From an uncultured Alphaproteobacteria bacterium (GTDB lineage: Bacteria; Pseudomonadota; Alphaproteobacteria; RF32; CAG-239), in NCBI GenBank assembly GCA_944390265.1, contig CALXPK010000024.1:11183-75182 (forward strand): a stretch of DNA of 64,000 bases. The letters run 5' to 3'. The notes below the pieces were generated by a model. That model was not told the DNA's origin and ran no database searches. It saw only the letters and a program-made list of their open reading frames with translations. This document shows, piece by piece, positions 11,384 through 28,423 of the stretch. The first letter of the stretch is position 1; every line of letters starts with the position of its first letter. The translations under genes and the position numbers were made by a program.

Positions 11384-11420
11384 AAAAAAATCCCCTCCCA
11401 AAGCGGAGGGGATTTTTTTA
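11384..11420 (+). terminator. Terminator directly after the tRNA
   Basis: atcccctcc-caaagc-ggaggggat followed by T7. Confidence 0.6.
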
Positions 11421-11619: not shown

Positions 11620-11696
11620 GAAGAGTCCATCTGGGCCCACCATAAAAAAATCCCCTCCCAAAGCGGAGGGGATTTTTTTTATGGTGAGAAGAAAGA
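11620..11696 (+). repeat. Direct repeat of the tRNA 3' end (gagtccatctgggcccacca) plus terminator plus atggtgagaagaaagaca, a second copy of 11362..11437; att-like duplication
   Basis: About 76-bp near-identical direct repeat bracketing about 182 bp that includes an inverted partial T-arm copy (11441-11460, cgaaccaacgag). Confidence 0.7.
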
Positions 11697-11781
11697 CATT
11701 TTTTTTATGGTGAGAAGAAAGACATTTTTTTTATGGTGAGAAGAAAGACATTTTTTTTATGATGAGAAGAAAGATATTTTT
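11681..11781. repeat. Tandem repeat, 26-bp unit atggtgagaagaaagacatttttttt, 4 copies (last one degenerate)
   Basis: Read directly from the sequence; no unique spacers between units. Confidence 0.8.
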
Positions 11782-11865
11782 GGCGTGAGGGAAAAGATAT
11801 GATTGACAGCAGAACAAAAATGAATTTTACTCATCTGCAGATTTTATTTATGCGGTGGAGATAAT

Positions 11866-13026
11866 ATGAAAAAAATATTTTTGGCTTTGTTTTTCTTATT
11901 GTGCTCGGCAAACGCTGCCTCAGCCATGCAGATTTTTATTTTCACTTTGAACTCAAAACATATCACTCTGGAAGTTGAGCCTACGGATAAAGTGGAAGAT
12001 ATTAAACTGAAAATTTTGGATAAAGAAGGGGTGCCGGTCGATCAACAGCAATTAACTTTTGACGGCAAGGTGTTGAAAGATGGCTATACTTTGCAAGATT
12101 ATAGCATTCAAAAAGATTTTACTCTGAATTTGGTTTTGAAAAGTGAACTTAATATTGAGGCTTATCAGCTCAACTTTAATCCGGTTAATGTTGTCAGACA
12201 GAATACAGATATGTTGTTGAATACCATATCTTCTCGCACCACCGGCGGTATTCAGGCCTCAGCGGGCGGGGAGCAGATAAACCCCAAGGATAATTCATCT
12301 CTTTGGGTGAACAGCTTGACCGGACATTCCGAATATGCGGGAACAAATAGTAATGGTTTGGTCATGGGTTTTGAGAAAAAAACTTCGGCTTTTAAATATG
12401 GTTTGGGATATGGTTATTTGGAAAATGATATTGACGGCTTAAACTATGGTGCAGAAGCCAAAACACATTCCGGTTTTGTTTATGGTGAATATAAGCCTTC
12501 TTCTTGGTATGCTCATGCCATGCTGACCTATTCTCATTCGCGGTTTGAGGAAAATGATTTGAGCAAATATAATTTTCAGGCCGTCAGTTCTCAGATTATG
12601 AGCGGATATGATTTTGGCAATATAACGCCGGAAGCCGGTTTTAGATATATGCATATTTGGAATGATGATTATAGAGATGCAAAAAATGTTTATCTGTTTG
12701 AAAATGACGAAAATTTTTTGACGGGAATTGTCAGTGCCAAAGCGGACAAAGAGATAAAACTTGATAATGGATATCTCCTTGTGCCGCAGATTAAGGTTTC
12801 TGCCTTGTATGACTTGATGCAGGCAAATACTGATACGGGAGTTTTGATTTATGGGAATTATTATCAAATCAATACCGACAAAATTTCAAAATATGGTACG
12901 GAAATCAACCTCGGCGTTGAGCTGGCCAAGCAGAATCTTTGGTCCGCATATCTGGGTTATTACGGCCAGTTGAGAAATAATTATAATATGCATTCTGCGG
13001 TTTTGAATTTTCAATATGATTTTTAA
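11866..13026 (+). CDS. Autotransporter whose passenger is a eukaryote-like ubiquitin domain (signal peptide + Ubl + linker + C-terminal autotransporter beta-barrel)
   Basis: Signal peptide [20 protein letters not shown]; residues 21-92 [72 protein letters not shown], about 46/72 identical to ubiquitin by hand alignment; C-terminal about 250 aa with [13 protein letters not shown]... and terminal NFQYDF typical of autotransporter beta-domains. Confidence 0.85.
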
Positions 13027-13378: not shown

Positions 13379-13738
13379 AGCCTTTATTCAATGGCGAAAA
13401 ATATACATTTATCGACAGATGTTTAAAGTTTGTAATACATAACTTATTGTTACTTATAATTCTTTGTTTTTTTTAGTGTTTTTTACAAAATAAAAGTTGA
13501 CTTTGTGTTTTGTGTTGCTACTATTGTGGTCAACCATTAACCAAGACTTTTGTATTGTGAATATCATATGTCTGAATGCCTGTTCAAAATGTTACAACTG
13601 ACGGAGTTTGCCTGTGATTGATACCAAAATTGCCGCTTGTTGTCCTTTGTTTTGTTTTGAAACGTGGCAGAATTTATCTCCTACTGCAACTATTTGCAAA
13701 AATTGTCAAAAAATCTTCAGAAGACAAAGGAAAAATCA

Positions 13739-15037
13739 ATGAAAATCGGAATTATCGGAACAGGCTACGTGGGGCTGCCGACCGGTGTCGGTTTGGCCGA
13801 ACTTGGCAACGAGGTGATGTGTATTGACCGAGAACCAACCAAAATCAACGCTTTGAAAGCCGGCAAAATTACTCTCTATGAGGCCGGATTGGAAGACTTG
13901 TTCCACAAAAATGTCAATGAAGGGCGTTTGCATTTTACCACCTCCATGAAAGAGGGTGTGGAAAATGCCGATATAGTGATTATTGCCGTCGGAACCCCGC
14001 CGCATCCGGTGACAAAAGAGGCTGATATGAAATATATTCATGCGGCCGCTACCGAACTGGCCGAATATTTGACCGGATATACCGTGGTGGCCGTGAAATC
14101 GACCGTGCCCGTCGGTACCGGTGATGATGTCGAGGCTCTTATTGCCAAAAAGAATCCGCATGCCGATTTTGATGTGATTTCTTTGCCTGAGTTTTTGCGC
14201 GAAGGTTTTGCCGTGCATGACTTTTATCATCCCGACAGGGTTGTGGTCGGTGCCGATAGCCCCAAAGCCAGACAACTTATTCAGAAATTGTATCAGCCGT
14301 TTGAAGGTCAGACTTCCGTTTTGTTTGTTAAACGTCGTTCCAGCGAAACCATTAAATATGCCTCCAATGCCTTTTTGGCGATGAAAATTCATTATATCAA
14401 CGAAATGGCTGATTTTTGCGAAAAAACCGGCGCCGATATTTATGAAGTGGCCAAAGGAATGGGCTTGGACAGCCGAATCGGGCCAAAATTTTTGAATCCG
14501 GGGCCGGGGTATGGCGGTAGTTGTTTTCCCAAAGATACTATGGCGATGTCTTATATGGCTCGGCAAAACGGCGTTAATATGACGCTGATTAATGCCGCTA
14601 TTGAAGGGAATCGGAACCGCAAAAAACAGATGGCAAAACGGATTTTGGATGCGGCTAAAGGAATTGAAAAACCGCGAATCGGCGTTTTGGGTTTGGCTTT
14701 CAAAAACGGAACCGATGATTGTCGGGAGAGTCCGGCCATTGAAATCGTGAGTGAGCTGATTAATCACGGGGCTTTGGTGACGGCTTATGACCCCAAAGCC
14801 ATGAATACGGCGCAAAAACTGCTCGGAGATAAGATAAGCTATGCTTCGGATATGTATCAAGCACTTGAAAAAGCCGACGTCTTGGCTGTTTTGACCGAAT
14901 GGGATGAGTTCAGAACTTTGGATTTGACCAAAGCGGCGCAGGTTATGAATCATAAAAATATTGTAGATTGCCGAAATTTGATTTGTCCCGATGAGGCCAA
15001 AAAATCAGGCTTTGCATATGAGGGAATCGGTCGATGA
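13739..15037 (+). CDS. ugd: UDP-glucose 6-dehydrogenase (nucleotide-sugar dehydrogenase family)
   Basis: RBS aaagga 7 nt upstream; MKIGIIGTGYVGLPTG Rossmann motif; GYGGSCFPKD active site. Confidence 0.9.
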   Translation: MKIGIIGTGYVGLPTGVGLAELGNEVMCIDREPTKINALKAGKITLYEAGLEDLFHKNVNEGRLHFTTSMKEGVENADIVIIAVGTPPHPVTKEADMKYIHAAATELAEYLTGYTVVAVKSTVPVGTGDDVEALIAKKNPHADFDVISLPEFLREGFAVHDFYHPDRVVVGADSPKARQLIQKLYQPFEGQTSVLFVKRRSSETIKYASNAFLAMKIHYINEMADFCEKTGADIYEVAKGMGLDSRIGPKFLNPGPGYGGSCFPKDTMAMSYMARQNGVNMTLINAAIEGNRNRKKQMAKRILDAAKGIEKPRIGVLGLAFKNGTDDCRESPAIEIVSELINHGALVTAYDPKAMNTAQKLLGDKISYASDMYQALEKADVLAVLTEWDEFRTLDLTKAAQVMNHKNIVDCRNLICPDEAKKSGFAYEGIGR

Positions 15038-15897
15038 ACAAAAAAATTGTTTATACTTGCATTTGCGGCGATTATGATAGCTTGGTCAAACAAAAATATG
15101 TGGCCGAAGATTATACTTATGTTTGTTTTACCGATAATCCGGATTATTTGAAAAAAGGTAGGGTTTTCAACTGGATTATTCGGCCGCTGGTTTTTGACAA
15201 ACTTGATGCTACCCACAACAATCGGTGGCACAAACTGCATCCGCATCTCTTGTTTCCCGACTGCGAAATCAGCATTTATATTGATGCCAATATCAATATT
15301 CTTTCACCTTATCTTTTTGAAAAAATTGAGGCCACCGATAAAGATTTGCTTATCCATAAACATTATGACCGAGATTGCGTTTTTGATGAAGCGCAAAAGA
15401 TTAAAAGTTTGCACAAAGACAGTGATGAAAATATTGATAAGATGCTGGCCTTTTTGGAGCAAGAGAAAATGCCCAGACATTACGGCCTGACCGAAAATAA
15501 TGTTTTGTGTCGCAAAAATACGCCGCTGTGCCGCAAAATTATGGAAGAATGGTGGTATTTTGTTCTCAACTATACCAAACGTGACCAAATGTCTTTGATG
15601 TATGTGTTGTGGAAAAACGGTCTCAAAGCTACCGATGTTTATTGGGAAGGCGACCGCAAAAATATTTATCGCTCCCAAAATCATGTAACTTATATTCCCA
15701 ATAATATGAAAATTTTCAACTTCGTGAAGCAAAAAGAATATGATATTTTTTATTTGTTGCGGGTTCCGGTTTTTAAAATTCGCAATAAGCCAAACAAAAA
15801 ATATGTATATCTTTTGGGTGTGAAAGTTTTATCCATTTCACCAAAGAAGGTTATGTTGTTTGGCATGATTCCACTCTATTATAAAATATTCAAATGA
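15034..15897 (+). CDS. DUF616-type (TOD1/MUCI70-like) glycosyltransferase
   Basis: 4-nt overlap with ugd; family call based on my recollection of the DUF616 architecture. Confidence 0.65.
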   Translation: MNKKIVYTCICGDYDSLVKQKYVAEDYTYVCFTDNPDYLKKGRVFNWIIRPLVFDKLDATHNNRWHKLHPHLLFPDCEISIYIDANINILSPYLFEKIEATDKDLLIHKHYDRDCVFDEAQKIKSLHKDSDENIDKMLAFLEQEKMPRHYGLTENNVLCRKNTPLCRKIMEEWWYFVLNYTKRDQMSLMYVLWKNGLKATDVYWEGDRKNIYRSQNHVTYIPNNMKIFNFVKQKEYDIFYLLRVPVFKIRNKPNKKYVYLLGVKVLSISPKKVMLFGMIPLYYKIFK

Positions 15898-15907
15898 GGA
15901 AAAGACA

Positions 15908-16852
15908 ATGAAAGCATTGATAACAGGCGGCGCCGGTTTTATCGGTTCAACCCTTGCGGATAAACTTTTGGCCGAAGGTCACGAGGTGATTGTTGTTGAT
16001 AACTTCAGCGACTATTATGATGTGAAACTCAAATGGCAAAATGTGGCGGCCAATATGAATAATCCGCATTATAAACTTTATGTGACCGATATTGAAAATA
16101 AGACGGCGTTGCGCAAGGTTTTTGAAGAAAACAACATAGATTGCGTTGTCCATTTTGCCGGAAGAGCCGGGGTCAGACCTTCTATTGAAATGCCGGAAGA
16201 ATATGTGAAGGCAAATATTTTGGGGGCGGTTCATGTTTTTGAACTGATGAAAGATTTTGGGGTGAAAAAAATTGTTTTTGCCTCTTCTTCTTCCGTTTAC
16301 GGAAATTGCAAGGCAGAAAAATTTTCCGAAGATTTAAATGTGCGTGAGCCCATTTCTCAATATGCGGCCAGCAAATCGGCCGATGAGCAATTTGCCTATA
16401 CTTATTCAAAATTGTATGGAATCAACGTTGTTTGTTTGCGCTTTTTTACGGTATACGGCCCGCGTCAGAGACCGGATTTGGCCATTAGAAAATTTATTGA
16501 ACTGATTGAACAGGACAAGCCTATCCAGATGTATGGCGATGGCAGCAGTATGCGCGATTATACCTATGTGGATGATATTGTGGCCGGTGTTCGTGCCGCT
16601 ATGGATTATGACAAAACGGCTTATGAAATTATTAATATCGGGGGAAGCTCTCCGGTGACTTTGCGCCAAATGATTGCCACGATTGAAAAAGTTTTGGGTA
16701 AAAAAGCCAAAATTGAACAACTCCCGATGCAAAAAGGCGATGTTGACAAAACCGTTTCCGACATATCCAAAGCCGCCAGACTTTTGGGTTATGCCCCACA
16801 AACCAGTTTTGAAGAAGGTATACAAAAGTTTGTTAAATGGAGAAAGCAATGA
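15908..16852 (+). CDS. NAD-dependent nucleotide-sugar epimerase, probably UDP-glucuronate 4-epimerase
   Basis: MKALITGGAGFIGSTL motif; YAASK catalytic pair; follows ugd. Confidence 0.85.
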   Translation: MKALITGGAGFIGSTLADKLLAEGHEVIVVDNFSDYYDVKLKWQNVAANMNNPHYKLYVTDIENKTALRKVFEENNIDCVVHFAGRAGVRPSIEMPEEYVKANILGAVHVFELMKDFGVKKIVFASSSSVYGNCKAEKFSEDLNVREPISQYAASKSADEQFAYTYSKLYGINVVCLRFFTVYGPRQRPDLAIRKFIELIEQDKPIQMYGDGSSMRDYTYVDDIVAGVRAAMDYDKTAYEIINIGGSSPVTLRQMIATIEKVLGKKAKIEQLPMQKGDVDKTVSDISKAARLLGYAPQTSFEEGIQKFVKWRKQ

Positions 16853-17922
16853 GCTTTTTTCAAAAAATAAGATATCCTAACGGGAAAAGAAAAGTCTTAT
16901 TCTTGGGTAAGAAAATTTTTTCTTATAGGGTCAAAAAAAATGAAAATGCAAAAGTTTTTTTACCTGATAGTTGCTTTGAAAAAAACGATATTTCCGCGGA
17001 ATCAATAAAGGTGGTTTATAAGCCTTTTATTAGTTTAAGTTTAGTTCCTGATTTTATTGCAAATAAAGATATTTATTATAATGAAGATAAACCCAATTTA
17101 TTAGCTAATTTGGACTCAGAATCCTATCGTACAATAATGACGGTATTAAATAAATATGAATATTTGTCCAATGGAGGAAGTAAAGATTTATTAGAAACAT
17201 CGGCGCAAATTCGATATAATAATACAGTTGTTAAGTCGTTTCTAAATAGCATTGAAAAACAAAAAGATGGAACTTATAAGTATAAAGATTTTATCTTGCC
17301 CGAAAATCATTTTGAAACTTCGGTTTTTTTAGATGAACATGGTTTGAATAAAATAAACAAAAAGTTTGTAAATGGTATAATTATTGACGTTGGTAGTTAT
17401 ATTGGTGATTCTATTCTAATTTTTAGAAAACATTTTCCGGATAATCAGATTATTGGTTTTGAAGCAACGACATGTAATTATGAGATGGCTTTGCAAACTC
17501 TAAAGTTAAATAATCTTAAAAATGTTCTGGTAGAAAATTTAGCACTTGGAGATAAAGAAGGAAGTTTAACTTTATCAACCGATCAAGGAAGCGGTAATAG
17601 TTGGGAATTTTCGTATTTATCTGAAAAAGTTGAACATTGTAAAATGGAGACATTTGATAATTATGTTAAAAAGCACAAGATAAAAAAAGTTGGTTTGATA
17701 AAAGTTGATATTGAAGGTGCGGAACAACTTTTTATTCGAGGGGCATTAGAAACAATTAAACGAGATAAGCCCATTATATTGATGAGTATTTATCATAATT
17801 ATGATGATTTGATGCATATTAAACCTTTTTTTGAAAAATTGAATCTTGGCTATACATTCAAAATTCACAAGCCGATAGATACTATTTTTAATGAAATATT
17901 GCTTATATGCCTACCTTTATAA
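16849..17922 (+). CDS. FkbM-family SAM-dependent methyltransferase with an N-terminal extension that begins with a shared leader motif
   Basis: GIIIDVGSYIGDS methyltransferase motif I; N-terminus MSFFQKIRYPNGKRKVLFLGKKIFSY aligns with the N-terminus of 21367..23853; very AT-rich. Confidence 0.8.
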   Translation: MSFFQKIRYPNGKRKVLFLGKKIFSYRVKKNENAKVFLPDSCFEKNDISAESIKVVYKPFISLSLVPDFIANKDIYYNEDKPNLLANLDSESYRTIMTVLNKYEYLSNGGSKDLLETSAQIRYNNTVVKSFLNSIEKQKDGTYKYKDFILPENHFETSVFLDEHGLNKINKKFVNGIIIDVGSYIGDSILIFRKHFPDNQIIGFEATTCNYEMALQTLKLNNLKNVLVENLALGDKEGSLTLSTDQGSGNSWEFSYLSEKVEHCKMETFDNYVKKHKIKKVGLIKVDIEGAEQLFIRGALETIKRDKPIILMSIYHNYDDLMHIKPFFEKLNLGYTFKIHKPIDTIFNEILLICLPL

Positions 17923-17940
17923 ATGCTAAAAAAATTTTAA

Positions 17941-18636
17941 TTGGAAAAGTTGATGAAAAAAATTTTTGTTGAGACAGATTTTGCAAAATTGGATGTTGCT
18001 CGAAAACAACGAACCGGTTTTCCTGAGACGGTTTTTTGTTTGGGAAAGAGTAAAGAGCAAGTTGCTGATATCTTGCAGAATTTTGCATCGGTCGGGCAAA
18101 ATGTTTTGGGAACAAAATGTTCTCCTGAACAATTTGATTTTGCTTTGAAAAAAGGCTTGCCGGTTAAATATGATTCTTTATCACGAGTGATAAGCCTCGG
18201 GCAAAAAGAGACTAATCCTTTTAGGGGAAACATTGCCGTGTGCTGTGCAGGTACATCTGATTTGCCGATTTTGGAAGAAGCTGCTCAAGTTGCCGAATTT
18301 TTTGGAGCTGTTGTTGAAAGGTATGTTGATATCGGTGTTGCCGGAATCCAGCGTTTGTTTGCACAAATTGATAATATTCAAAAGGCTGACGTTGTTATTG
18401 CCGTGGCCGGAATGGAAGGGGCTTTGGCCAGCGTGTTGGCCGGTTTGGTCAGAACTCCGGTGATTGCCGTTCCGACATCGGTGGGATATGGCGCCTCTTT
18501 TCATGGTTTGGCGGCCATGCTTGCCATGCTTAATTCATGTGCCGAAGGCGTGTCGGTTGTTAATATTGATAATGGGTTTGGCGCTGCGGTTCAGGCTTGT
18601 CGAATCTTAGCACTAAAAGGAAGGATGAATGACTAA
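17941..18636 (+). CDS. larB: LarB, nickel-pincer nucleotide biosynthesis carboxylase/hydrolase (PurE-like)
   Basis: AVAGMEGALASVLAGLVRTPVIAVPTSVGYGASFHGLAAMLAMLNSCAEGVSVVNIDNGFGAA matches the LarB/PurE-like core. Confidence 0.85.
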   Translation: MEKLMKKIFVETDFAKLDVARKQRTGFPETVFCLGKSKEQVADILQNFASVGQNVLGTKCSPEQFDFALKKGLPVKYDSLSRVISLGQKETNPFRGNIAVCCAGTSDLPILEEAAQVAEFFGAVVERYVDIGVAGIQRLFAQIDNIQKADVVIAVAGMEGALASVLAGLVRTPVIAVPTSVGYGASFHGLAAMLAMLNSCAEGVSVVNIDNGFGAAVQACRILALKGRMND

Positions 18637-19855
18637 ATATTTATATTTTGACGGGTCTTGCGGTATTGCAGGAGATATGACAGTGGCGGCTCTGTTGGAT
18701 TTGGGTGCTCGTCGTGAAAAGTTGCAACAGGTTTTGGAAAGCCTAAAGTTGGATGGTGTGCATTATCATATTTCTCAAAAGTCTTCTTATAGTATTTTCG
18801 GGTGCGATTTTGATGTCCATCTTCTGCAGAAAACAGATTCTCATGAAGAAGAATATCTTATGAATGCACATCATCATGAACATCGTCATCATGAACATCG
18901 TCATTTGTCTGATGTGTATGAAATTATTGACCGTGGAAAAATGAGCGAAAGGGCACGCCTTTTGGCTAAAAAAATATTTGAAATAGTGGCACAGGCCGAA
19001 GCTAAAGCTCATGGCGTGAAGGTTGAAGATGTGCATTTTCATGAAGTGGGGGCTTTAGATTCAATTGTTGATATTGTTTCGGTTGCCGTGTTGATTGATG
19101 ATTTGGGTATTGAAAACTGTATTGTTACCGGTTTAAATGAAGGGCATGGCTTTGTTACTTGTCAGCATGGAAGTCTGCCGGTTCCGGTTCCTGCTGTTTT
19201 GAATATTGCCGAAAAATATGGCTTGATTTTGCGGCCGACCTCGGTTGAAGGTGAGATGGTGACACCTACCGGTATTGCCGTTGTTGCCGCTTTGAAAACA
19301 GATGCAAAACTTCCTCCTGCTTATAAAATTTTGAAGTCTGGTGTCGGGTTGGGAAAAAGAGATTTTGGTCGAGCTAATTTTTTGCGAGTTCAAATTATTG
19401 AAGATGTGGCTGACGAGAAACAAATTTTTGTAATTGAGAGTAATATTGATTATACCAGTGCCTAAGAATTGGGCTTTGCTCAAGAAAAACTGTTTGCTGC
19501 AAGTGCTTTGAATGTGCAGTTTGATCAAAAAAAAAAAAAAAAATGCCGACCGGCTTATCTGTTACGAATCATTTGCTCGGCTGATAAAGTTTCTGCTTTG
19601 GAAAAAGTTCTTTTTGAAAATACCTCGTCTATCGGTTGTCGGAAATATGTCGTGGAAAGAACAGTTATGACGCGTGAAAATATTTTAGTGCAGCTTGATT
19701 ACGGTCAAGTTAGCGTAAAAAAGTGTTGCTATTTGGATTTGGTGCGTTTTTATCCAGAATTTGAAAGTGTTAGACAATTGGCTTTGCAAACAGGTTTGTC
19801 TTTTCGAAAAATTTTTGATGATGCAAAATTGAAAGCTGAAGAAAACAAATGTTAG
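18629..19855 (+). CDS. larC: LarC nickel insertase (DUF111): the N- and C-terminal parts are in the same frame, separated by a single TAA at 19463-19465; an A17 tract lies at 19527-19543
   Basis: N-terminal part MTKYLYFDGSCGIAGDM... with His-rich HHHEHRHHEHRH; C-terminal part ...GCRKYVVERTVMTRENILVQLDYGQVSVKK... typical of the LarC C-terminal domain; both parts in frame 2. Confidence 0.75.
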
Positions 19856-20667
19856 ATAAGCTACAAAATTATCTGAAAAAAATGTCTGATGACGGAATTG
19901 CTTTGGCATATTCCGGTGGTGTCGATAGTTCTTTATTGCTAAAAATTTTGGCAGATTTGCATCGACAGAAAGATTTTCCTTTGGCCATATTGACCATGAA
20001 AACGGTTTTGCAAAGTTCCGAAGAAATTTCTGAGGCGGAATGTTTTGCCCGTACTTTAGGACTCAATATCAAAATATTGGTTTTTAATCCACTTTCTATA
20101 TCAGAAGTACACCATAATTCAGCTGATCGTTGTTATTTTTGTAAAAAAGCAATGTTTCAAAAATTTGCAGATTATGCCAAAGAGAATAACCTTCGTTATT
20201 TGATTGACGGAACCAATGCCGATGATGGAGACGAATATCGTCCGGGGTTGCGAGCTTTGTATGAGTTGGGTGTAATTTCTCCTCTGGCGGAACTTGGTAT
20301 TAATAAAGCCAATATTCGTCAAATGTCTCAAATTTTGGGACTAGCTTCGGCAACAAAGCCTTCCGTGCCATGTTTGGCTACAAGATTTGAATACGGAACT
20401 TGTTTGAATGAGATGCTGATTCAGCGTGTGGCGCAGGGAGAAGCTCTTATTAGACAAATGTTTCCCAATATGAAAAATTTGCGATTGCGTGTTCATTGCT
20501 GTGGTCGCTTAGCACGAATTGAGGTTGCTAATGAATATATAGGCGAGGTTTGTTCTTTGGCTCAAAATTTGGTTTTGAAATTGAAAAATTTGGGTTTTGA
20601 ATTTGTAACACTGGATTTGGAAGGATTTCGTTCCGGAAGTTTTGATGGACAGAAAAAGGGAAAATAA
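19849..20667 (+). CDS. larE: LarE, ATP-dependent sulfur transferase (PP-loop ATPase)
   Basis: PP-loop SGGVDSS; 272 aa. Confidence 0.85.
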   Translation: MLDKLQNYLKKMSDDGIALAYSGGVDSSLLLKILADLHRQKDFPLAILTMKTVLQSSEEISEAECFARTLGLNIKILVFNPLSISEVHHNSADRCYFCKKAMFQKFADYAKENNLRYLIDGTNADDGDEYRPGLRALYELGVISPLAELGINKANIRQMSQILGLASATKPSVPCLATRFEYGTCLNEMLIQRVAQGEALIRQMFPNMKNLRLRVHCCGRLARIEVANEYIGEVCSLAQNLVLKLKNLGFEFVTLDLEGFRSGSFDGQKKGK

Positions 20668-21329
20668 TGATGACTACAACAATTTTTATGCTCTGGACAA
20701 CAGCTTTTTTGACCGCGGTTATTCATACAATTGCCGGACCGGACCACTATTTGCCGTTTATTGCCATTGCTAAAAGTAAAAATTTTAGCCTTAAAAAGAC
20801 GTTGGTTTGGACGTTTGTTTGTGGACTCGGACATATCGGCAGTGCTTTGCTAATTGCTTTAGCTTTTATTTATTTTTCTCATTGGCTGAGCCAAGAAAAT
20901 TTTGAATGGATTGAGAAAAATCGCGGAGATGTGGCCGCATATGCCCTTATCGGTTTAGGTGCTGCTTATCTTTTGTGGGCTTTGCGGCATCGCTGGCAGC
21001 ATCGGCACGGCTTGGCTCATCAGCATCATTATTTGCCCGATGGTGACCAGCCAAATGTTACCGTTTGGGTCGTTTTTATTATATTCGTGTTTGGTCCTTG
21101 TGAAGCCTTGTTGCCGATTTTGACTGCTTCTAGTGTGTTGGGTGCTTCAGCTATTATTTCCAGCACGATTATTTTTTCATTGGCCACTATCGGTACAATG
21201 ATGCTGACTGTCACTCTTGGCTTGTTGGGAATGAAGGCTTTTCATTTTCAAAAAATGGAAAAATATGCTCATGAAATTGCCGGCGGAACAATCATGACTT
21301 GCGGTATGGCAATTTTGTGTGGACTGTGA
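20667..21329 (+). CDS. Putative nickel/cobalt transporter (NicO/HoxN-like membrane protein)
   Basis: 6-7 TM segments; HTIAGPDH motif in TM1; adjacent to larBCE. Confidence 0.55.
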   Translation: MMTTTIFMLWTTAFLTAVIHTIAGPDHYLPFIAIAKSKNFSLKKTLVWTFVCGLGHIGSALLIALAFIYFSHWLSQENFEWIEKNRGDVAAYALIGLGAAYLLWALRHRWQHRHGLAHQHHYLPDGDQPNVTVWVVFIIFVFGPCEALLPILTASSVLGASAIISSTIIFSLATIGTMMLTVTLGLLGMKAFHFQKMEKYAHEIAGGTIMTCGMAILCGL

Positions 21330-21366
21330 CTTTTGGGTTATTGTTATATAGATGAGGGGACAATAA

Positions 21367-23853
21367 ATGAAACTTATTGAAAAGAAAAAATATTCAGACG
21401 GTCGTCGCAAAGTTTATGTCTTGGGCAAAAAAGTTTTGAGTTATAAACGCAAAAAAGCTCAAGAGGTGCTTGGCGCCGAAGAGAACGGCAAACCCAGTGA
21501 ATATGATATGATTTTTGCCAAAAGATTTTCAGGGCTGAATTTGTCTGAAAAGAGATTTATTTTGGAAAAACAATTTCGTTTTTATGCCGGTTATGATTTA
21601 AACCTCAATAATCCGCAGACCTTTAATGAGAAAACTCAATGGTATAAACTTTATTATTGTCATCCCTTAATGAAAGTTTGTGCTGATAAAGTTTTGGTTA
21701 GGGATTATGTTAAAGAAAAAATCGGCGAGAAATATTTGGTAGACATCATTGGGGTTTATGATGATGTGGAAAAAATTGACTGGGACAAACTTCCAGACCA
21801 GTTTGTTTTGAAAGTTAATCACGGCAGCGGGCAAAATCTTATTTGCAAAGATAAGAAACAGTTTGATATTGCTCAGGCCAAGGCCAAACTTGCCGAGTGG
21901 ATGGATCCGAAAAATAATCATGCATATAATTATTTGGAATATGCTTATAAAAATATTGAACCGAAAATTGTGGCTGAAAAATATATCAAACAAATGGATG
22001 GCAATTTGCTCGACTATAAATTTTTCTGTTTTGACGGCAAAGCCCAATATGTGCAGATTGATCTTGACCGATATACGCATCATACACGTTGCTTTTATGA
22101 TATGGATTTTAAAAAACAAGAATTTACAACTTGTTATCCTTTTTATACCGGTGAGGTTGAAAAGCCAGAAGCCTTTGATGAAATGAGAAAAATTGCTGAG
22201 ACTTTGGCGCATGGCTTTCCTTTTGTGCGGGTTGATTTGTATAATTTGGACGGAAAAGTTAAGTTTGGGGAGATGACTTTTTATCACGGAAACGGAACCG
22301 AACATTTTGAACCCCAAGAATGGGATTTGAAATTGGGCAAACTTTTCAAACTCCCAAAATTTCCCTATATGGCTGATGATGCAACCAAGCGTTCAGTTGG
22401 GGTTTATTATCGCGATGTTTTTACTTATCCTGACAAAAAATATAATTTTCGCCCCTCAAAGGCTTATCCGGAATATCCGTTTCAGAATGAAATTTCTTCC
22501 GAACCTAATGAGGTTTATGATATGGTCAGAGAGAATTTTCATTTGATGAAAATGGATGAAGAAAATTTTGGAACAGCAAAATGGAACCCTCTGAAAGAGA
22601 TTGTTCATCCCGGAGATAAGGTCTTGCTTAAGCCCAATCTGGTTTTGCATCACAATCTTTTGGGCTTGGGCGAGGATTGTCTCTATACACAGCCTTCGGT
22701 GACGGCGGCCGTGATTGATTATGTGCTGATTGCTCTGCAGGGAAAAGGGTCTATCATTGTCGGCGATGCGCCTTTGCAAGAATGTGTCTTTGACACTTTG
22801 GTCCAAGAAAGCGGCTATGATCAGTTGATTGCATATTATCAAAACAAAGGTGTGGATATTCAGCTTAAAGATTTTAGAAACGTGAAAACTTATGTCGGAA
22901 AAGACGGTATTCACTATACGCAAGATGACAGCCAAAACCATAAAGATGAAGGTTTGGTAGTGCATTTGGATGCTTATAGCAGTTTTTATGGTTTGGATGA
23001 GGAAAGAATATCGCGAATGCGCATTACCAACTATGATCCGCGTATTTTGCAAAAACACCATTCTTCGCAAAAACATGAATATAAGGTTTCAAAATATATT
23101 CTTGAGGCAGATGTGATTATCAATCTTCCCAAACCCAAAACACACCGAAAAGCCGGTGCTACTTCTGCCTTAAAAAACTTGGTCGGAATTAATGCCAATA
23201 AAGAATTTTTGCCTCATCATACCAATTTGAGCAAGCAAGAAGGCGGTGATGCCTATTTTCATAAGTCACAAGCCTTGCAAATTGCAAATGAATGGTTAGA
23301 TAAAATGAATATCTTTACCGCAGAAGGTAAGGTTGAAGAGGCACAGAAAGCAAAAGCAATGTATTATCAATATTCAGATTTTGGCAAAGCTGAGTCCGGT
23401 GAGATTTATTGGGAAGGAAGTTGGTATGGTAATGATACCATTTGGAGAACTTTGTTCGATTTGAACAAAATTCTGTTCCATGCCGATAAAAACGGAATCA
23501 TCAGAGCCAATAAGCAAAGAAGATATTTTGTGGTGGCTGACATGATTGTTTCCGGCGAAAAAGAAGGCCCTCTTGAGCCGACACCCAGACCGGTCGGAAT
23601 GATTGCCATGGGCTATGATCCTTGTTGCTTTGATCAGGCCATTGTTTCTATGATGGGGTTTGATTATCGGCTTTTGCCTTCCGTTTATGAGATAAAAAAC
23701 AGAAAAGGCGGTGTTTGCGAGATTACGTCCGGTGCAGAACCTTTGTTGTTGAGCAATGTTCCGCAATGGCAAGGAAAAAGCGTTGATGAAATTAAGCAAA
23801 CTTGTTCTTTGCAATTTTATCCAACCAACGGATGGAAAAAAGTTTTATGGTAA
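21367..23853 (+). CDS. 828-aa fusion protein: shared N-terminal leader motif + TupA-like ATP-grasp amidoligase + C-terminal DUF362-like domain
   Basis: RBS gagggga before the ATG; N-terminus MKLIEKKKYSDGRRKVYVLGKKVLSY; ATP-grasp-like middle; C-terminal region with the PKPKTHRKAGATSALKNLVG motif. Confidence 0.75.
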   Translation: MKLIEKKKYSDGRRKVYVLGKKVLSYKRKKAQEVLGAEENGKPSEYDMIFAKRFSGLNLSEKRFILEKQFRFYAGYDLNLNNPQTFNEKTQWYKLYYCHPLMKVCADKVLVRDYVKEKIGEKYLVDIIGVYDDVEKIDWDKLPDQFVLKVNHGSGQNLICKDKKQFDIAQAKAKLAEWMDPKNNHAYNYLEYAYKNIEPKIVAEKYIKQMDGNLLDYKFFCFDGKAQYVQIDLDRYTHHTRCFYDMDFKKQEFTTCYPFYTGEVEKPEAFDEMRKIAETLAHGFPFVRVDLYNLDGKVKFGEMTFYHGNGTEHFEPQEWDLKLGKLFKLPKFPYMADDATKRSVGVYYRDVFTYPDKKYNFRPSKAYPEYPFQNEISSEPNEVYDMVRENFHLMKMDEENFGTAKWNPLKEIVHPGDKVLLKPNLVLHHNLLGLGEDCLYTQPSVTAAVIDYVLIALQGKGSIIVGDAPLQECVFDTLVQESGYDQLIAYYQNKGVDIQLKDFRNVKTYVGKDGIHYTQDDSQNHKDEGLVVHLDAYSSFYGLDEERISRMRITNYDPRILQKHHSSQKHEYKVSKYILEADVIINLPKPKTHRKAGATSALKNLVGINANKEFLPHHTNLSKQEGGDAYFHKSQALQIANEWLDKMNIFTAEGKVEEAQKAKAMYYQYSDFGKAESGEIYWEGSWYGNDTIWRTLFDLNKILFHADKNGIIRANKQRRYFVVADMIVSGEKEGPLEPTPRPVGMIAMGYDPCCFDQAIVSMMGFDYRLLPSVYEIKNRKGGVCEITSGAEPLLLSNVPQWQGKSVDEIKQTCSLQFYPTNGWKKVLW

Positions 23854-23865: not shown

Positions 23866-24888
23866 ATGCAAACGAAAACTTCTATAGTTGTTAATTCTGA
23901 TAATAATTTAGCTTTTGCCGTAGCTACATTATTTGTTAATTTGTTGGAAACTAAGAAAAATGAAAATTTTCTGGATTTGAACGTTTTGGTTACTCCGGAT
24001 TTTGATGATGAGTATATCAAAAAAATAAAGTCCATAGAGCAACAATATGAGGGGCAGTGTTCGGTTAATGTTATAAAAATGGATCACCGATTTGACAATA
24101 TTCGCAATAAGACAGGATATATTACAAATTGTGCTGCCTATAGAATGTGTGTTGCAGAGATGTTTCCCTCGCATCATAAAATGTTGTATATTGACACGGA
24201 TGTCGTCGTCTTTGATGATTTGTACGAGCTCTTTAATACGGATATTAACGGATATTATATTGGAGGCGTGTTTAGTATTGAGCATTATATTTATAGAAAT
24301 GAATTGATAGAAAAATTATCCATTCCCGATTTATCTCAATATGTTAATTCCGGAGTTCTTTTATTGAATTTGGATGAGATAAGAAAAGATAATGTTGAAG
24401 CTAAATTGCACGCGTTGCTCGGCTCATATGATGATTCTGTTGATCAACATATTTTTAATAAGGTTTGTTACGGGCATATAAAGCTGTTGCCTTTTAAATA
24501 TAATGTTTTTCAATCTTCAGAATGGATGTATGAAAGCAAAAAAGCGTTGGTTGAGATGACTGAAGCGGAGTTGGAAGAAGTTATTAAAAGGCCGGTAATT
24601 TATCATTATACGGGAACTGTTAAGCCGTGGCTTGTGGCGGATAAAAAATATGCCTTAAGATGGATGAGATATTATAAAAAATCGCCGTTTGCAACAGAAA
24701 AATTACCACTACATTTCATGGATGAACATGTGTATCTTATGCCCAAATTGACTTTTTGGCAAAAAATATTTTCTATTAATTTAATTTCCAATAAAAATAA
24801 TACTAAGAGCAAATATAAAGTTTTTCTATTGGGTATGCAAATAAATTACAGAAAAAAGAAGAAACAGAAACAGCAAGGAGAAAATTAA
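23866..24888 (+). CDS. Family 8 glycosyltransferase (LgtC/RfaJ-like)
   Basis: YIDTDVVVFDD DxD motif; GYITNCAAYRM. Confidence 0.85.
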   Translation: MQTKTSIVVNSDNNLAFAVATLFVNLLETKKNENFLDLNVLVTPDFDDEYIKKIKSIEQQYEGQCSVNVIKMDHRFDNIRNKTGYITNCAAYRMCVAEMFPSHHKMLYIDTDVVVFDDLYELFNTDINGYYIGGVFSIEHYIYRNELIEKLSIPDLSQYVNSGVLLLNLDEIRKDNVEAKLHALLGSYDDSVDQHIFNKVCYGHIKLLPFKYNVFQSSEWMYESKKALVEMTEAELEEVIKRPVIYHYTGTVKPWLVADKKYALRWMRYYKKSPFATEKLPLHFMDEHVYLMPKLTFWQKIFSINLISNKNNTKSKYKVFLLGMQINYRKKKKQKQQGEN

Positions 24889-25877
24889 TGATTCCAATAG
24901 TTGCAATATCTGATGCCAAGCAGGCATTTGCTTTGGCAACATTGTTTGTTAATTTGATGGAAACTAAGGCAAAAGAAACTGTTTATGAACTCAATGCTTT
25001 GGTCGCACCGGATTTTACCGATGAGGATGTGGCAAAAATAAAATCTCTTGAGCATAGTTATCAGGATTGCAAAATCAATATTATCAAGATGGATAATCGC
25101 TTTGATCATATCAAAAACGGAACCGGTTATATTGCCAATTGTTGTGCTTATAAAATGTGTATGGCGGAGATGTTTCCGCAATATGATAAAATTTTGTATC
25201 TGGATACGGATATGCTTGTTTTTGAAGATTTGAGCCCGCTTTATAATACGGATATGTCCGATAATTATATCGGTGGGGTCTTTTCTATTGATCATTATCT
25301 TAATCGGCGTGAGTTGATTGAAAAACTTAATATTCCCGATATGACGGACTATGTGAATGCCGGAATGCTGTTGATGAATTTGGCGGAAATCAGAAAAAAC
25401 AGAATTGAAGAAAAATTGCAAGCCTTAATCGGCTCGTATAATGATTCGGTTGATCAGCATATTTTTAACAAGGTTTGCTATGGGCATATTAAGCATTTGC
25501 CTTTCAAATATAATGTCTTTAAATCTTCCGAGTGGATGTATGATAACAAGGAGGCTTTGGTCTGCATGACCGGAGAAGAGCTTGATGAAATAATCAACAG
25601 TCCGGCTATTTATCATTATACCGGTAAAGAAAAGCCTTGGAACACACTGAAAATTAAATATGGTGTGCGGTGGATTTGGTATTATAAAAAGACGGCTTAC
25701 AAAGATTTAAAGTTGATTTTGGCCGAAGTCAAAAAAATAGAAACGACAACACCGCAAAAAGTTAAAATGCGTTTAATCGACTATGTTTTTTCAATTAAAA
25801 AATATAAAAAACAAGGTAAATCTTTTAAACAATTGACCATTTTAGGGCTTAAGCTGAAATTGCAAAAAAATAAATAA
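24888..25877 (+). CDS. Family 8 glycosyltransferase, tandem paralog of the preceding gene (about 70% aa identity by eye)
   Basis: YLDTDMLVFED DxD motif; colinear similarity to 23866..24888. Confidence 0.85.
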   Translation: MIPIVAISDAKQAFALATLFVNLMETKAKETVYELNALVAPDFTDEDVAKIKSLEHSYQDCKINIIKMDNRFDHIKNGTGYIANCCAYKMCMAEMFPQYDKILYLDTDMLVFEDLSPLYNTDMSDNYIGGVFSIDHYLNRRELIEKLNIPDMTDYVNAGMLLMNLAEIRKNRIEEKLQALIGSYNDSVDQHIFNKVCYGHIKHLPFKYNVFKSSEWMYDNKEALVCMTGEELDEIINSPAIYHYTGKEKPWNTLKIKYGVRWIWYYKKTAYKDLKLILAEVKKIETTTPQKVKMRLIDYVFSIKKYKKQGKSFKQLTILGLKLKLQKNK

Positions 25878-25901: not shown

Positions 25902-26873
25902 TTGATTAAAATAAATTTTATTGTTTTATCTTCTGCAGATCGAGGATCAACCCGAATCAGAGTGTTTAATCTGGTTAATGCTTTGAAACGCTATGACGTT
26001 GATGTCAGAATCAATGCGCCGCTTTATTGGGGTGATATTTGTGCTTTTCATAAAGAGTTAAAACCCAACAAACTGGAACGGCGTTTGCGTCTTGCCAATT
26101 TGCTGGGAAAATTTACTTGTTTTGATATTGATGACTATTTTGAGGATTATAAAAAGGTTGTTAAGGCGGCGGATTTGTGCATTAACAGTACCGCATATTT
26201 GCAGAAGATAAACAGTCAATATAATCTGCATGATATTGTGGTGGACAATAGTCTTGACGTGGATGATGTCAATATCAAACTCAAACAAGATTGTTCTGCG
26301 CATCAAAAGGTTTGTTGGTACGGTTGCCATGTTAATGCTTATATTTTGGATAAGTTTAATATCAAAAACGTGACCATTATTTCTGAAAAAGGAGATATTA
26401 TTTGGCACAAAGAAACCATAGACCAAGATTTGCAAAAATTTGATTTGACGATTATTCCGCAAGAAAAAACACCGCATACTCTGGCTAAGACACATTGCCG
26501 AATGTTGAAGGCTTTGTATTTGGGCGTGCCGGTGATGGTTACGGATATGCCGGAATATGTGGACTTGGCTCAATATCTCAATTATCCCAAAGAATTTATT
26601 GTGACCAATTCGCAAGATTGGAATCAAAAAATTGAAGATTTTAAGTCCGGAAAGTTGAAATTTAGCTTTGATTTTGAACAGGCACGCAAGAAAATATTGC
26701 AGAGATACGCGCCTGCTGTTATTGCCGATAGCTGGATTAAACAAGTGAAAGCTGAATATTTGCAGTATCAAAAACACAAAATCAGAAATTGGTTTAAGAA
26801 AAACAGCCTTAAAAATCTATATAGATTGCTTAAAATAACAATACGTATCAGACATGGAAAGCACGCCAGATAA
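25902..26873 (+). CDS. Putative glycosyltransferase-like protein (TTG start)
   Basis: Long AT-rich ORF in line with the glycan locus; family is uncertain. Confidence 0.45.
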   Translation: MIKINFIVLSSADRGSTRIRVFNLVNALKRYDVDVRINAPLYWGDICAFHKELKPNKLERRLRLANLLGKFTCFDIDDYFEDYKKVVKAADLCINSTAYLQKINSQYNLHDIVVDNSLDVDDVNIKLKQDCSAHQKVCWYGCHVNAYILDKFNIKNVTIISEKGDIIWHKETIDQDLQKFDLTIIPQEKTPHTLAKTHCRMLKALYLGVPVMVTDMPEYVDLAQYLNYPKEFIVTNSQDWNQKIEDFKSGKLKFSFDFEQARKKILQRYAPAVIADSWIKQVKAEYLQYQKHKIRNWFKKNSLKNLYRLLKITIRIRHGKHAR

Positions 26874-26948: not shown

Positions 26949-28423
26949 TCAGATTTTGACAATGCCATGGGCAAAGGCATAAATGGCCCAAAGTGAAAGA
27001 ATAATAAAGATGGTTACAGCGGCATATTCACGAGCCGTAAAGAGCTTCTCATTTGGCTCAGACTCTTTTCTGGCCCAGATATAAACCGGAATACCCAAGG
27101 TGACAATCACAACCGCCATCAGCAAATAATTTAAGCCGGCGGCATAAATCAGCCAAAGAGCATAGATTGAGCCGAAAACCGAGGTAAACAAAGCCGAAGA
27201 GCGTTTGACCGGTAAGCCGCTCGGATATTCGCCGTCTTCACAAAGTTTCCATAAATAAGCGCAGGAGGCAAAATAGGCCGGCAATACCATGACGCTGGTG
27301 ATGCTCAACATGGTGTTCCAGGCGTTGTTGGAGAAATAGACCAACAAGATGAAAATTTGCATCATGGCTGAGGTGACCCAAAGTGAAACGCTCGGTGAAC
27401 CGGCTTCATTCTCTTTGGTGAAGGCTTTGGGAAAAGTACCGTTTTCAGCAGCAGCTTGCGGAATTTGTGCGGTGACGATTGTCCAGGCCAGCCAGCTGGT
27501 CAACACCGAAAGAACCAAGCCGATGTTCATAATCCAAGCGCCCCAAGGTCCGACAACTTTTTCCAAAATGCCGGCGGTGGACGGAGGTGGAACAGCAGCG
27601 AGTTCGGGTTGTGACATCAATCCATAAGGCAGTAATGAGAGCAACAGATAAATGACTAAGCAACCGATGAAGCCCAAAAACGTTGCTTTGCCGATTTCTT
27701 GAACATTTTTGGCGCGGTTAGACATGACAACGGCACCTTCAATACCAATAAATGCCCACAAGGTGACCAACATGGTCGATTTGATTTGGGTTTCCAAACC
27801 GCCGAGTTTGGCTTTGGTTTCAATGGCTTCGCCCCAGAAGTCAAAGTCAAAATGAGCAAATTTGAACACAAACAGCATTATCAAAATGAACAAAACCAAC
27901 GGGACAACCTTAACAACCGTGCCGATGGTGTTGATGACGGAGGCTTGTTTGATGCCTTTCAAGACCAAAAAGTTGAAGCCCCAAATGATGATTGAGCCCC
28001 GATGATGGAGGCGAGGTTGTTGCCGCCGGCAAAGTAGGGCGGAAAGAAGTAGTTCAACGCATCCATCGTGATGACGGCATAACCGACATTGCCGCAAACC
28101 TGACAAAGCCAATAGGACCAGCCGATGGTGAATCCGGCAAAGGGGCCGAAACCTTCACGGCTGTACATATAAATACCGGTGGTTAAATCCGGCTTGGCCA
28201 TGGACAAGATGCTGAAGGTGTTGGCAATGAAATAGATACCGATACCGGTGATGACCCAAGCCAGCAAAACGGCTCCGGCAGAAGCATGCGAGGCCATGTT
28301 TTGCGGCAAGGAATAAATGCCGCCGCCAATCATGGAGCTGACAACAATCGCGGCTAAGGCCAGAACACCCAAGCCGTTGGGGTTGTTTTTCAGCGGTGCG
28401 GCAGAAGTTTTTTTATCAGCCAT
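26949..28423 (-). pseudogene. APC-family basic amino acid antiporter (arginine:agmatine or arginine:ornithine, AaxC/ArcD-like) disrupted by a -1 frameshift at a C4 (minus-strand G4) tract 27996-27999
   Basis: N-part [11 protein letters not shown]...GGNNLASII in one frame, C-part [19 protein letters not shown]... in another; adding one G gives a contiguous ...[19 protein letters not shown]. Confidence 0.8.

Follow-up and report, generated by a model that had tools for sequence, protein, structure and literature searches.

Some peripheral glycosyltransferases associate with the membrane through tails, such as the basic amphipathic helices at the C-termini of Campylobacter and Helicobacter transferases or the tails of MurG and TagF-type enzymes. 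Among enzymes of capsule synthesis, Cj1438C amidates the C6 carboxylate of glucuronate in Campylobacter jejuni (PMC11800379). In LarA, Lys184 tethers the nickel-pincer nucleotide (NPN), a histidine completes the nickel coordination and His108 and His174 form the catalytic pair; LarA homologues with a single catalytic histidine also exist (PMC12611868). LarA homologues act on 2-hydroxy acids, sugar acids included (PMC11770544; PMC12611868). Synteny has led to NPN users outside LarA, and LarA is missing from many genomes that have lar genes (PMC13524815). A +450 Da adduct was observed for LarA and for NphT (PMC13524815). Here we describe a stretch of 64,000 nucleotides from an uncultured gut alphaproteobacterium (contig CALXPK010000024.1; the whole stretch analysed is called the window), in which a surface-polysaccharide operon of the lipopolysaccharide (LPS) or capsule type carries several copies of one short basic segment, here called the tag, and encodes, beside larBCE, an 828-amino-acid (aa) fusion of an ATP-grasp domain with a DUF362 domain. 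The explanation that we favour as a whole, and to which we give a probability of about 0.5, is that of a tagged surface-glycan operon whose ATP-grasp/DUF362 fusion acts on uronic acid and whose DUF362 domain holds NPN.

The operon is a co-directional, tightly packed block of genes on the + strand (window 13.6–26.9 kb), in which several stop and start codons overlap. A preliminary description of this DNA had proposed that two unrelated enzymes of the block begin with a common basic leader of about 30 aa, that the leader is a shared docking or targeting segment, and that the DUF362 region of the larger enzyme is the missing NPN-binding partner of the neighbouring lar genes. The two enzymes, and the five tag copies that we found in the operon by BLASTP, hidden Markov models (HMMs) and a regular expression, are as follows.

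16849..17922, + strand: FkbM-family methyltransferase, 357 aa (PF05050, Methyltransf_21; TIGR01444)
16849..16947, + strand: N-terminal tag on FkbM, MSFFQKIRYPNGKRKVLFLGKKIFSYRVKKNEN (BLASTP, independent HMM; as P0124, the top match of the exhaustive database search, 55 bits)
21367..23853, + strand: 828-aa protein made up of tag, TupA-type ATP-grasp and long DUF362 (Pfam; orthologues P0002–P0004; AlphaFold mean predicted local distance difference test score, pLDDT, 86.6)
21367..21465, + strand: N-terminal tag on the ATP-grasp/DUF362 protein, MKLIEKKKYSDGRRKVYVLGKKVLSYKRKKAQE (BLASTP; kept in the orthologues)
15763..15861, + strand: diverged C-terminal tag copy on the TOD1 glycosyltransferase, ..KIRNKPNKKYVYLLGVKVLSISPKK.. 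(regular expression; HMM scores)
24775..24873, + strand: diverged C-terminal tag copy on glycosyltransferase GT8a, ..NNTKSKYKVFLLGMQINYRKKKK.. (regular expression; 38 bits with an HMM that includes the GT8a copy)
25788..25874, + strand: diverged C-terminal tag copy on glycosyltransferase GT8b, ..KKQGKSFKQLTILGLKLKLQKNK (regular expression; 30 bits with an HMM that includes the GT8b copy; positional alignment)

The common leader is real. From ATG 16849, a start also used by the database gene call P0124, and from ATG 21367, the FkbM and 828-aa proteins align without gaps from Met1 in BLASTP, with 15/32 identities and 22/32 positives (pairwise E 2e-9). In a non-circular test, an HMM was built from the leaders of the ATP-grasp protein and of its orthologues P0002–P0004, all of which have an N-terminal leader, and was thus free of the FkbM sequence; searched against 1,950 six-frame open reading frame (ORF) segments, it recovered the FkbM leader at E 1.4e-7, the next unrelated match standing at E 0.08. 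The catalytic domains behind the two leaders are indeed unrelated, Pfam assigning Methyltransf_21 to the one and ATPgrasp_TupA with DUF362 to the other; the FkbM matches lie above the curated thresholds of both profiles (PF05050, E 5e-13, 49.9 vs 22.7 bits; TIGR01444, E 4e-26, 92.2 vs 37.7 bits). The DNAs that encode the two leaders are identical at 63/99 positions, and many of the differences are synonymous or reflect codon choice. Conservation is therefore at the protein level, and a recent DNA duplication as the origin of the shared leader is ruled out.

The three C-terminal copies go beyond the preliminary description. A regular expression for the core ..KVxxLGxKxxSY.. matched five real proteins of the operon and no other real gene in the 64 kb. 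The TOD1 copy reached 44.8 bits when the HMM contained it; an independent HMM of 38 leaders gave it 14.5 bits and missed the GT8a and GT8b copies. The GT8 copies nevertheless match, position for position, the canonical tags that follow the GT8 domain in the GT8 protein of locus L027 and in P0135, P0146 and P0153.

An exhaustive HMMER search of 1.84 billion representatives with the tag profile returned 52 carriers at E ≤ 1e-3. The consensus, MKIFKKxKxPNGRRHIYLFGIKIFSYKKK, has invariant K6, G12, G20, S25 and Y26 and a mean column identity of 63%. A word-indexed homology search with the motif alignment gave zero matches, because too few 5-residue words are held in common. Most copies begin at residue 1; internal or tandem copies lie between domains in P0135, P0146, P0137, P0153 and P0177, P0146 having the order GT8-tag-tag-FkbM and P0135 the order GT8-tag-tag-MptE-like, and P0160, a kinase-like protein, has its tag at the C-terminal end. 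This profile search answers the question, raised in the preliminary description, of which enzyme classes carry the leader. The carriers fall into about 19 Pfam families: Hexapep acetyltransferases, GT2, GT4, GT8, GT9, GT29-like, GT92, GT-D-like, TOD1/MUCI70, RgpF, Caps_synth, LicD, FkbM, class I methyltransferases, ATPgrasp_TupA, MptE-like, DUF1796, DUF6492 and kinase-like. Every annotated carrier belongs to a family typical of polysaccharide loci, and the tag is tied to no single catalytic fold. Furthermore, points of fusion and fission coincide with the tag: TOD1-tag-ATP-grasp forms a single ORF in locus L010 (9245–11014) and corresponds in the window to two proteins, TOD1 tagged at its C-terminus and ATP-grasp tagged at its N-terminus; P0146 joins GT8 to FkbM through two tags, and in the window each of these enzymes stands alone with one tag of its own.

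The tag is undescribed in the libraries searched. Pfam gave no match on the tag alone or on the tag region of 20 carriers, no NCBIfam model covers and no PHROG matches the tag residues of the window proteins, the PDB yielded nothing other than a spurious expression-tag match, and a comparison of the consensus with plasmid records produced noise only (E at least 5). In a genome scan the NGRRHIY subtype was found at 19 loci, 17/19 of them in metagenome-assembled genomes (MAGs) of gut or rumen Alphaproteobacteria, including Ca. Enterousia; the other two, in which the tag is C-terminal, are in one Muribaculaceae MAG and one Endomicrobiaceae MAG. The scan used a 9-sequence alignment biased to the NGRRHIY subtype, and this taxonomic spread is a lower bound. 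Ca. Enterousia belongs to the order Rs-D84, the genomes of whose members are mostly <1 Mb (PMC12306168). The 52 strict matches probably represent a small part of the tag family.

Three side observations concern tag-like segments elsewhere. In locus L001 the genes at 851–1726, 7521–8390 and 10997–11947 encode N-termini with looser versions of the tag (MKFIKKTKNGYHREITIFGFVKFKYK, MKFFGIKKHNDKKVLYFFGIKISLK and MSRLFGIQWLDTHKIVYFLGLKFKLK); one of the three proteins is a class I methyltransferase, another is phosphoribosyltransferase-like and one has no assignment. P0103, a Firmicutes protein with a double ATP-grasp, has a linker at ∼325–360, ..MKKHYLTLFGIIRFPVFF.., which faintly resembles the tag core. 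In the Clostridia loci L006 and L007 (the latter from MAG GCA_949069315.1), PF22674 (C2185-like_N) recurs within one polysaccharide locus on a TylF methyltransferase, an ATP-grasp protein, GT2 proteins and some DUF362 proteins, and may represent an analogous shared-module arrangement in another phylum.

Behind its tag, the 828-aa protein is composed of the following.

21628..22350, + strand: TupA-like ATP-grasp domain, residues 88–328 (PF14305, E 1.6e-66)
22375..23853, + strand: long DUF362 domain, residues 337–828, with a predicted LarA-like fold (PF04015, E 2.5e-27; AlphaFold; Foldseek)
23122..23220, + strand: family-invariant segment PKPKTH593RKAGATSALK603NLVGINANKEFLPH617H618, a candidate cofactor site (alignment A5; LarA alignment)

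Both assignments are secure at the level of profiles. PF14305 matched at 224.7 bits against a cut-off of 25, residues 88–328 covering profile positions 1–241 of 241, and PF04015 matched at 94–97 bits against a cut-off of 24 (E 1.3e-26 to 2.5e-27), so that the C-terminal region is a DUF362 domain, as had been suggested. The orthologues P0002–P0004 have the same architecture at 53–63% identity, and P0001 is an identical database protein; in P0006 the order of the DUF362 and ATP-grasp domains is reversed, and in P0005 (1,409 aa) TOD1 and GT2 domains are added. DUF362 homologues that stand alone (∼485–590 aa) number in the hundreds, the named ones coming from Clostridia MAGs (Lachnospiraceae, Peptostreptococcaceae), and in Firmicutes loci a TupA-type ATP-grasp gene lies directly 5' of the DUF362 gene, with Ugd and an epimerase close by. 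Among 80 further metagenomic loci with a long DUF362 gene, ATP-grasp was present within 10 kb in 55/80, Ugd in 25 and an epimerase in 34; where enough upstream sequence was available, ATP-grasp lay directly upstream on the same strand in 29/65. ATP-grasp plus long DUF362 is a conserved module, found with uronic-acid genes.

In the window these uronic-acid genes precede the FkbM gene.

13664..15037, + strand: UDP-glucose 6-dehydrogenase (Ugd), UDP-glucuronate supply (TIGR03026, the NCBIfam nucleotide-sugar dehydrogenase subfamily, E 7e-138, above cut-off)
15034..15897, + strand: TOD1/MUCI70-like glycosyltransferase, with a tag copy at its C-terminus (Pfam PF04765, E 9e-14)
15908..16852, + strand: NAD-dependent sugar 4-epimerase (Pfam Epimerase/GDP_Man_Dehyd)

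The 4-epimerase attained no NCBIfam equivalog cut-off; from its context it would be a UDP-glucuronate 4-epimerase. It is 54–66% identical to the gene directly 5' of a tagged ATP-grasp in four related alphaproteobacterial loci that have no DUF362 gene, the order being TOD1, epimerase, tagged ATP-grasp in L011 and L014, and epimerase then ATP-grasp in L022 and L024. Judged by these identities, the window probably comes from a relative of those gut Alphaproteobacteria. The neighbourhood of TOD1 glycosyltransferase, epimerase and ATP-grasp is kept in L011, L014 and L029 and is fused in P0005, P0137 and L010. By analogy with Cj1438C, the window ATP-grasp would be an amide ligase acting on a uronic-acid carboxylate, and the context of Ugd, 4-epimerase and TOD1 is consistent with this.

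What the DUF362 domain contributes is best approached through its predicted structure. The AlphaFold model of residues 337–828 (pLDDT 93.7; predicted template modelling score, pTM, 0.93) was compared with the PDB by Foldseek, and its 17 best matches are all LarA, LarA-like NPN enzymes or malate racemase (E 1e-5 to 1.5e-2, probability 0.9–1.0). The contrary case considered in the preliminary description, in which DUF362 would bear no structural relation to NPN-binding folds, does not fit these matches, and the domain is predicted to have a LarA-type fold, into which a helical insertion of ∼80–90 residues is modelled. DUF362 and the LarA N-domain family DUF2088 belong to one Pfam clan, CL0471 (PMC11770544), and a genuine LarA passes the gathering threshold of the DUF362 Pfam model (25.8 vs 24 bits). 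The second-best structural match, 4NAR, is a LarA-family protein of Thermotoga maritima whose PDB entry names it a putative uronate isomerase; we record this label as a notable coincidence with the uronic-acid context.

A candidate cofactor site can be placed on this fold. The segment with His593, Lys603 and His617/His618 is invariant in 61 aligned homologues (alignment A5) and is conserved in 83 further distinct sequences. Local alignment of the segment with LarA 156–200 by hhalign (E 0.28) pairs His593 with His174, Lys603 with Lys184 and His618 with His200, in the pattern H-x2-A-G-x-[ST]-x3-K; the LarA query sequence and its numbering were verified against 5HUQ, and the Pfam profile coordinates agree with this His/Lys/His alignment within 1–2 positions. 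An HMM of the segment found the same LarA region in the same register in two LarA sequences (P ∼0.04 for L. plantarum LarA and 0.17 for the Thermoanaerobacterium enzyme, by a shuffle test).

Several results weigh against carrying the likeness this far. The Foldseek TM-scores are low (0.24–0.35), the segment HMM gave no match for the Isosphaera LarA enzyme, and no counterpart of LarA His108 was found in DUF362. The DUF362 protein has no match to Lar_N (PF09861) or LarA_C (PF21113), even at E ≤ 10, and the DUF362 family sequence profile, run against the PDB, returned no LarA, only noise. The profile-profile alignment of DUF362 with LarA is not significant (hhalign E ∼0.2–0.3, with one sequence, with a profile of 28 sequences and with a larger profile plus two further LarA sequences from the PDB), and one run fell in another register. 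Since hhalign was never significant and the register shifted, we do not claim residue equivalence between DUF362 and LarA as established. Of the two comparisons called for earlier, that with PF04015 succeeded and that with LarA by hhalign fell short of significance.

The second line of evidence for NPN is the neighbourhood of the gene. Between the FkbM gene and the 828-aa gene the operon contains the following.

17941..18636, + strand: LarB, NPN cofactor biosynthesis (NF033503 equivalog, 284 bits vs cut-off 175)
18629..19465, + strand: LarC1 part of LarC, ending at an in-frame TAA at 19463–19465 (TIGR00299, 202 bits vs cut-off 90)
19469..19855, + strand: LarC2 part of LarC, in the same frame, with a possible TTG restart (NF052512, 84 bits vs cut-off 50)
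19849..20667, + strand: LarE, sacrificial sulfur transferase (TIGR00268 equivalog, 250 bits vs cut-off 150)
20667..21329, + strand: 220-aa hydrophobic protein that has a His-rich loop, HRWQHRHGLAHQHHYLPDGD, and, close to the N-terminus, the motif HTIAGPDH (overlap of its start with the larE stop)

All four lar products (LarB, LarC1, LarC2 and LarE) score above NCBIfam equivalog cut-offs, and their genes overlap or are tightly spaced, directly upstream in the operon. The 220-aa protein had no match in Pfam, NCBIfam or PHROG; judged by its sequence it is probably an integral-membrane protein and may be a nickel permease from a family not described before. larB, larC and larE and the gene for the 220-aa protein adjoin the 828-aa gene also in L031, a near-identical contig of the same species that was reached via cluster member P0123. 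No LarA was found in the window by Pfam on 20 further ORFs or by tblastn with the verified L. plantarum LarA. Since larBCE and a His-rich membrane protein are co-operonic here, DUF362 is proposed as the NPN holder, and we put the odds that the domain uses NPN somewhat short of even. In the libraries searched, a single paper names both DUF362 and the nickel-pincer cofactor, and there DUF362 figures as an outgroup.

The strongest alternative is that DUF362 has no nickel-pincer cofactor at all, that the lar block is a lineage-specific insertion serving another enzyme or none, and that the conserved His/Lys/His residues work in a different uronic-acid chemistry. We give this an even chance. Its main support, and the main burden on NPN use, is distribution: larB, larC and larE are absent within 10 kb of the long DUF362 gene in ∼90 other loci, in keeping with which no lar gene was seen in the flanks of the orthologue loci (51–63% identity: L001–L005, L029 and L030), near the Firmicutes pairs (L006–L009) or in the 80 metagenomic loci, where ATP-grasp is by comparison a frequent neighbour. 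The same burden includes the statistically weak LarA residue alignment described above and the stop codon that interrupts larC in the window strain. L031 has GAA in place of this TAA and encodes a single LarC of 408 aa; two neighbouring codons also differ. The stop coincides with the junction between LarC1 and LarC2, which have separate models in NCBIfam, and the split may therefore do no harm; a defect of the strain or an error of sequencing would be the other explanations.

Against an insertion unconnected with DUF362 stands the way in which the lar genes are built into the operon: they share its strand, stop codons overlap the starts that follow, and the sole LarA-like fold in the 64 kb is encoded directly 3' of them. 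The position of the larC stop, at a junction where some species have two ORFs, and the intact gene of the sister strain likewise speak against this alternative. LarA homologues are often encoded away from larBCE, as described by Desguin and Hausinger; non-adjacency elsewhere is therefore weak evidence. The earlier suggestion that DUF362 is the missing NPN partner thus keeps the common clan, the LarA-family structural matches and the His/Lys/His alignment on its side, and has against it the weakness of that alignment and an adjacency to lar genes that is confined to one species.

We turn now to the function of the tag. Averaged over the copies, its net charge is +9.1 and 4.6 of 32 residues are aromatic; the longest apolar run averages 5.9 residues and is at most 7. 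In the tag of the 828-aa protein AlphaFold predicts three short strands, at residues 5–8, 14–18 and 21–23, which show no confident packing on the ATP-grasp domain. The structure prediction proposed earlier for the leader returned these strands at low pLDDT (45–58). The tag is probably an autonomous, portable mini-module, either a small beta-hairpin or a three-stranded meander. Its interpretation as a shared docking or targeting segment is reasonable on the sequence evidence, and agrees with a specific, conserved module reused at N-termini, C-termini and linkers; the preliminary description, which had put it forward, missed the three C-terminal copies of the operon. Most likely, the tag would tether soluble tailoring enzymes at the cytoplasmic face of the membrane, the site of lipid-linked glycan assembly. 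Three points count against tethering to the membrane: the tag is more highly conserved than non-specific lipid binding requires, which speaks for a specific partner; AlphaFold models the tag with low confidence; and the three C-terminal copies have diverged, those of GT8a and GT8b being seen only by means of the regular expression, self-including HMMs and positional alignment.

A specific partner could be another protein. The tag may be a protein–protein docking element that assembles a multi-enzyme complex, either through beta-sheet pairing between copies or through attachment of all copies to a common scaffold, for instance the machinery of export or polymerisation. The column identity and the five invariant positions, together with a near-fixed NGRR(H) turn in carriers that are otherwise unrelated, are typical of specific recognition, N-terminal and C-terminal copies occur together in one operon, and the tandem pair between fused domains is what would be expected if a C-terminal tag pairs with an N-terminal one. 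However, no candidate gene for a receptor was found, and a net charge of ∼+9 on every copy disfavours pairing between tags unless lipid or glycan phosphate provides the counter-charge. We regard docking as the main rival to membrane tethering, and as less likely than not.

If the tag mattered as DNA, as a recombination hotspot that shuffles enzyme cassettes among polysaccharide loci, the motif would be expected at gene and domain boundaries, with fusions and fissions exactly there, as is observed; the many synonymous changes between leader DNAs that are 63/99 identical point instead to selection on the peptide and make this very improbable, and no long tract of identical DNA at tag positions was seen. 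Still less credible is a secretion signal or transmembrane anchor. Such elements are N-terminal only and have an uninterrupted hydrophobic core of ≥∼10 residues (signal peptide) or ≥∼18 residues (membrane helix), and the tag does resemble them in its usual N-terminal position and in having basic residues followed by hydrophobic ones. Its short apolar run is, however, broken by Gly and Lys, the same module occurs at C-termini and between domains, and the carriers would need cytoplasmic ATP, S-adenosylmethionine, acetyl-CoA and nucleotide sugars; by the length of the apolar run and by the C-terminal and linker copies, a signal peptide or membrane helix is ruled out. Chance likeness of Lys-rich, low-complexity N-termini, a contrary case named in the preliminary description and one to which a short Lys/Arg-rich segment and the empty word-indexed search might have pointed, is refuted by the independent HMM match, by 52 carriers with the same invariant Gly, Ser and Tyr positions, all annotated ones from families typical of polysaccharide loci, and by reuse in ∼19 families, and its probability is negligible.

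Taken together, these considerations suggest the following scheme for the tethered assembly line. The tag, whether on an N-terminus, a C-terminus or a linker, would hold soluble enzymes at the cytoplasmic face of the inner membrane, bringing many unrelated tailoring enzymes to one site. Ugd and the 4-epimerase would make UDP-glucuronate and UDP-galacturonate, and the TOD1/MUCI70-like transferase would install the uronic acid. The ATP-grasp domain would ligate the glucuronate or galacturonate carboxylate to an amine, by analogy with Cj1438C, and DUF362 would carry out a step coupled to this ligation. For that step DUF362 would hold NPN, tethered by Lys603 and with its nickel coordinated by His618, and His593 would serve as the catalytic base. 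The reaction would be an epimerisation or racemisation by hydride transfer, acting on the hydroxy-acid part either of the uronic-acid decoration or of the ligated partner. That DUF362 is a second, LarA-related NPN scaffold in surface glycan synthesis, supplied by in-operon larBCE and a nickel permease in an assembly line held by the tag, is a tentative proposal with the odds against it.

The operon is completed by three genes downstream of the 828-aa gene.

23866..24888, + strand: GT8 glycosyltransferase a (PF01501, E 3e-38)
24888..25877, + strand: GT8 glycosyltransferase b (NCBIfam LPS galactosyltransferase-like, E 1.7e-13, far under the 461-bit cut-off of the model; tblastn to GT8 genes elsewhere)
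25902..26873, + strand: 323-aa protein, the last gene of the block (kept in L031; no significant match in Pfam or NCBIfam)

A scan of the operon for promoter and terminator consensus gave no signal above shuffled controls, and no terminators within the block above chance. The rest of the window encodes LpxB, an EptA-type transferase and autotransporters, and the organism is therefore Gram-negative.

Other features of the window lie outside the operon. A 386-aa protein (11866–13026, +), kept in L031, has a signal-peptide-like N-terminus, a ubiquitin-like domain and an autotransporter beta-barrel; the domain is 64% identical to eukaryotic ubiquitin over 72 residues and has no C-terminal Gly-Gly, and by its sequence the protein looks like a surface-displayed ubiquitin mimic. 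Downstream of the block, at 26949–28423 (-) and 28500–29150 (-), is a likely integral-membrane transporter, amino-acid-permease-like by eye, that is split into two overlapping ORFs of 387 and 154 aa with a 216-aa ORF adjoining; the split may reflect a frameshift or mark a pseudogene. At 29696–30028 (+) a Cys-rich protein of 110 aa is encoded whose N-terminus is hydrophobic, at 33482–34591 and 34551–35603 (+) two tandem overlapping paralogues of the Ppx/GppA family, and at 50299–52056 (+), in surroundings that are otherwise chromosomal, a 585-aa protein whose C-terminal domain is like that of phage tail-fibre gp53.

If our reading of the tag is true, it is a portable address label that brings ∼19 unrelated families to one site, and so an organising principle for glycan assembly lines. 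In uncultured gut Alphaproteobacteria it could then serve to track down tailoring enzymes, and engineered enzymes might be brought together with its help. DUF362, for its part, is a large sister family of the LarA N-domain that has no assigned function, and the search for further nickel-pincer users is active, an AKR family and ornithine cyclodeaminase having been added in 2025–2026. In this operon a DUF362 enzyme shares its transcription unit with native larBCE and a putative nickel importer, and the combination is a concrete case that can be expressed. The distribution of the tag suggests that the organism may belong to Rs-D84, a gut lineage with small genomes; if it does, passenger genes would be unlikely. 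Should the NPN reading be true, it would give a function to PF04015 and the first nickel-pincer enzyme in polysaccharide biosynthesis.

The tails of peripheral glycosyltransferases share with the tag a short, basic and hydrophobic terminal segment on soluble enzymes that act on lipid-linked glycans. Those tails are amphipathic helices, specific to their families and poorly conserved, whereas the tag is one highly conserved module of predicted beta-strands that is found in ∼19 unrelated families, at either end or in linkers. The docking domains of polyketide synthases and nonribosomal peptide synthetases, and dockerin-type tags, resemble it in being small portable terminal modules on varied catalytic units that are kept as linkers after fusion; the tag differs in being much more basic, and no complementary classes of it are evident.

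The C-terminal domain of Cj1438, from the HS:2 capsule, belongs to PF14305, the family that the window ATP-grasp matches over its full length, and its locus likewise has uronic-acid supply genes and glycosyltransferases. In both systems the ATP-grasp domain is also found fused to glycosyltransferase domains (PMC11800379; P0005). Cj1438 has no DUF362 partner, and a basic tag has not been reported for it. The non-LarA NPN enzymes resemble our case in that their lar clusters have no LarA and a neighbouring enzyme has a conserved Lys/His pair; their folds are unrelated to that of LarA and their cofactor binding has been shown, whereas here the fold is LarA-like and NPN use is predicted only (PMC13524815). 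From LarA itself (Lar_N plus LarA_C) the DUF362 domain differs in having no Lar_N or LarA_C match and no His108 counterpart, in its helical insertion, and in that its family is paired with ATP-grasp in polysaccharide loci, whereas LarA is found in acid catabolism. Nevertheless, it is with LarA that the DUF362 domain shares its clan, its best and only strong structural matches and a candidate His/Lys/His set in matching order and spacing, and in this operon the gene stands beside larBCE.

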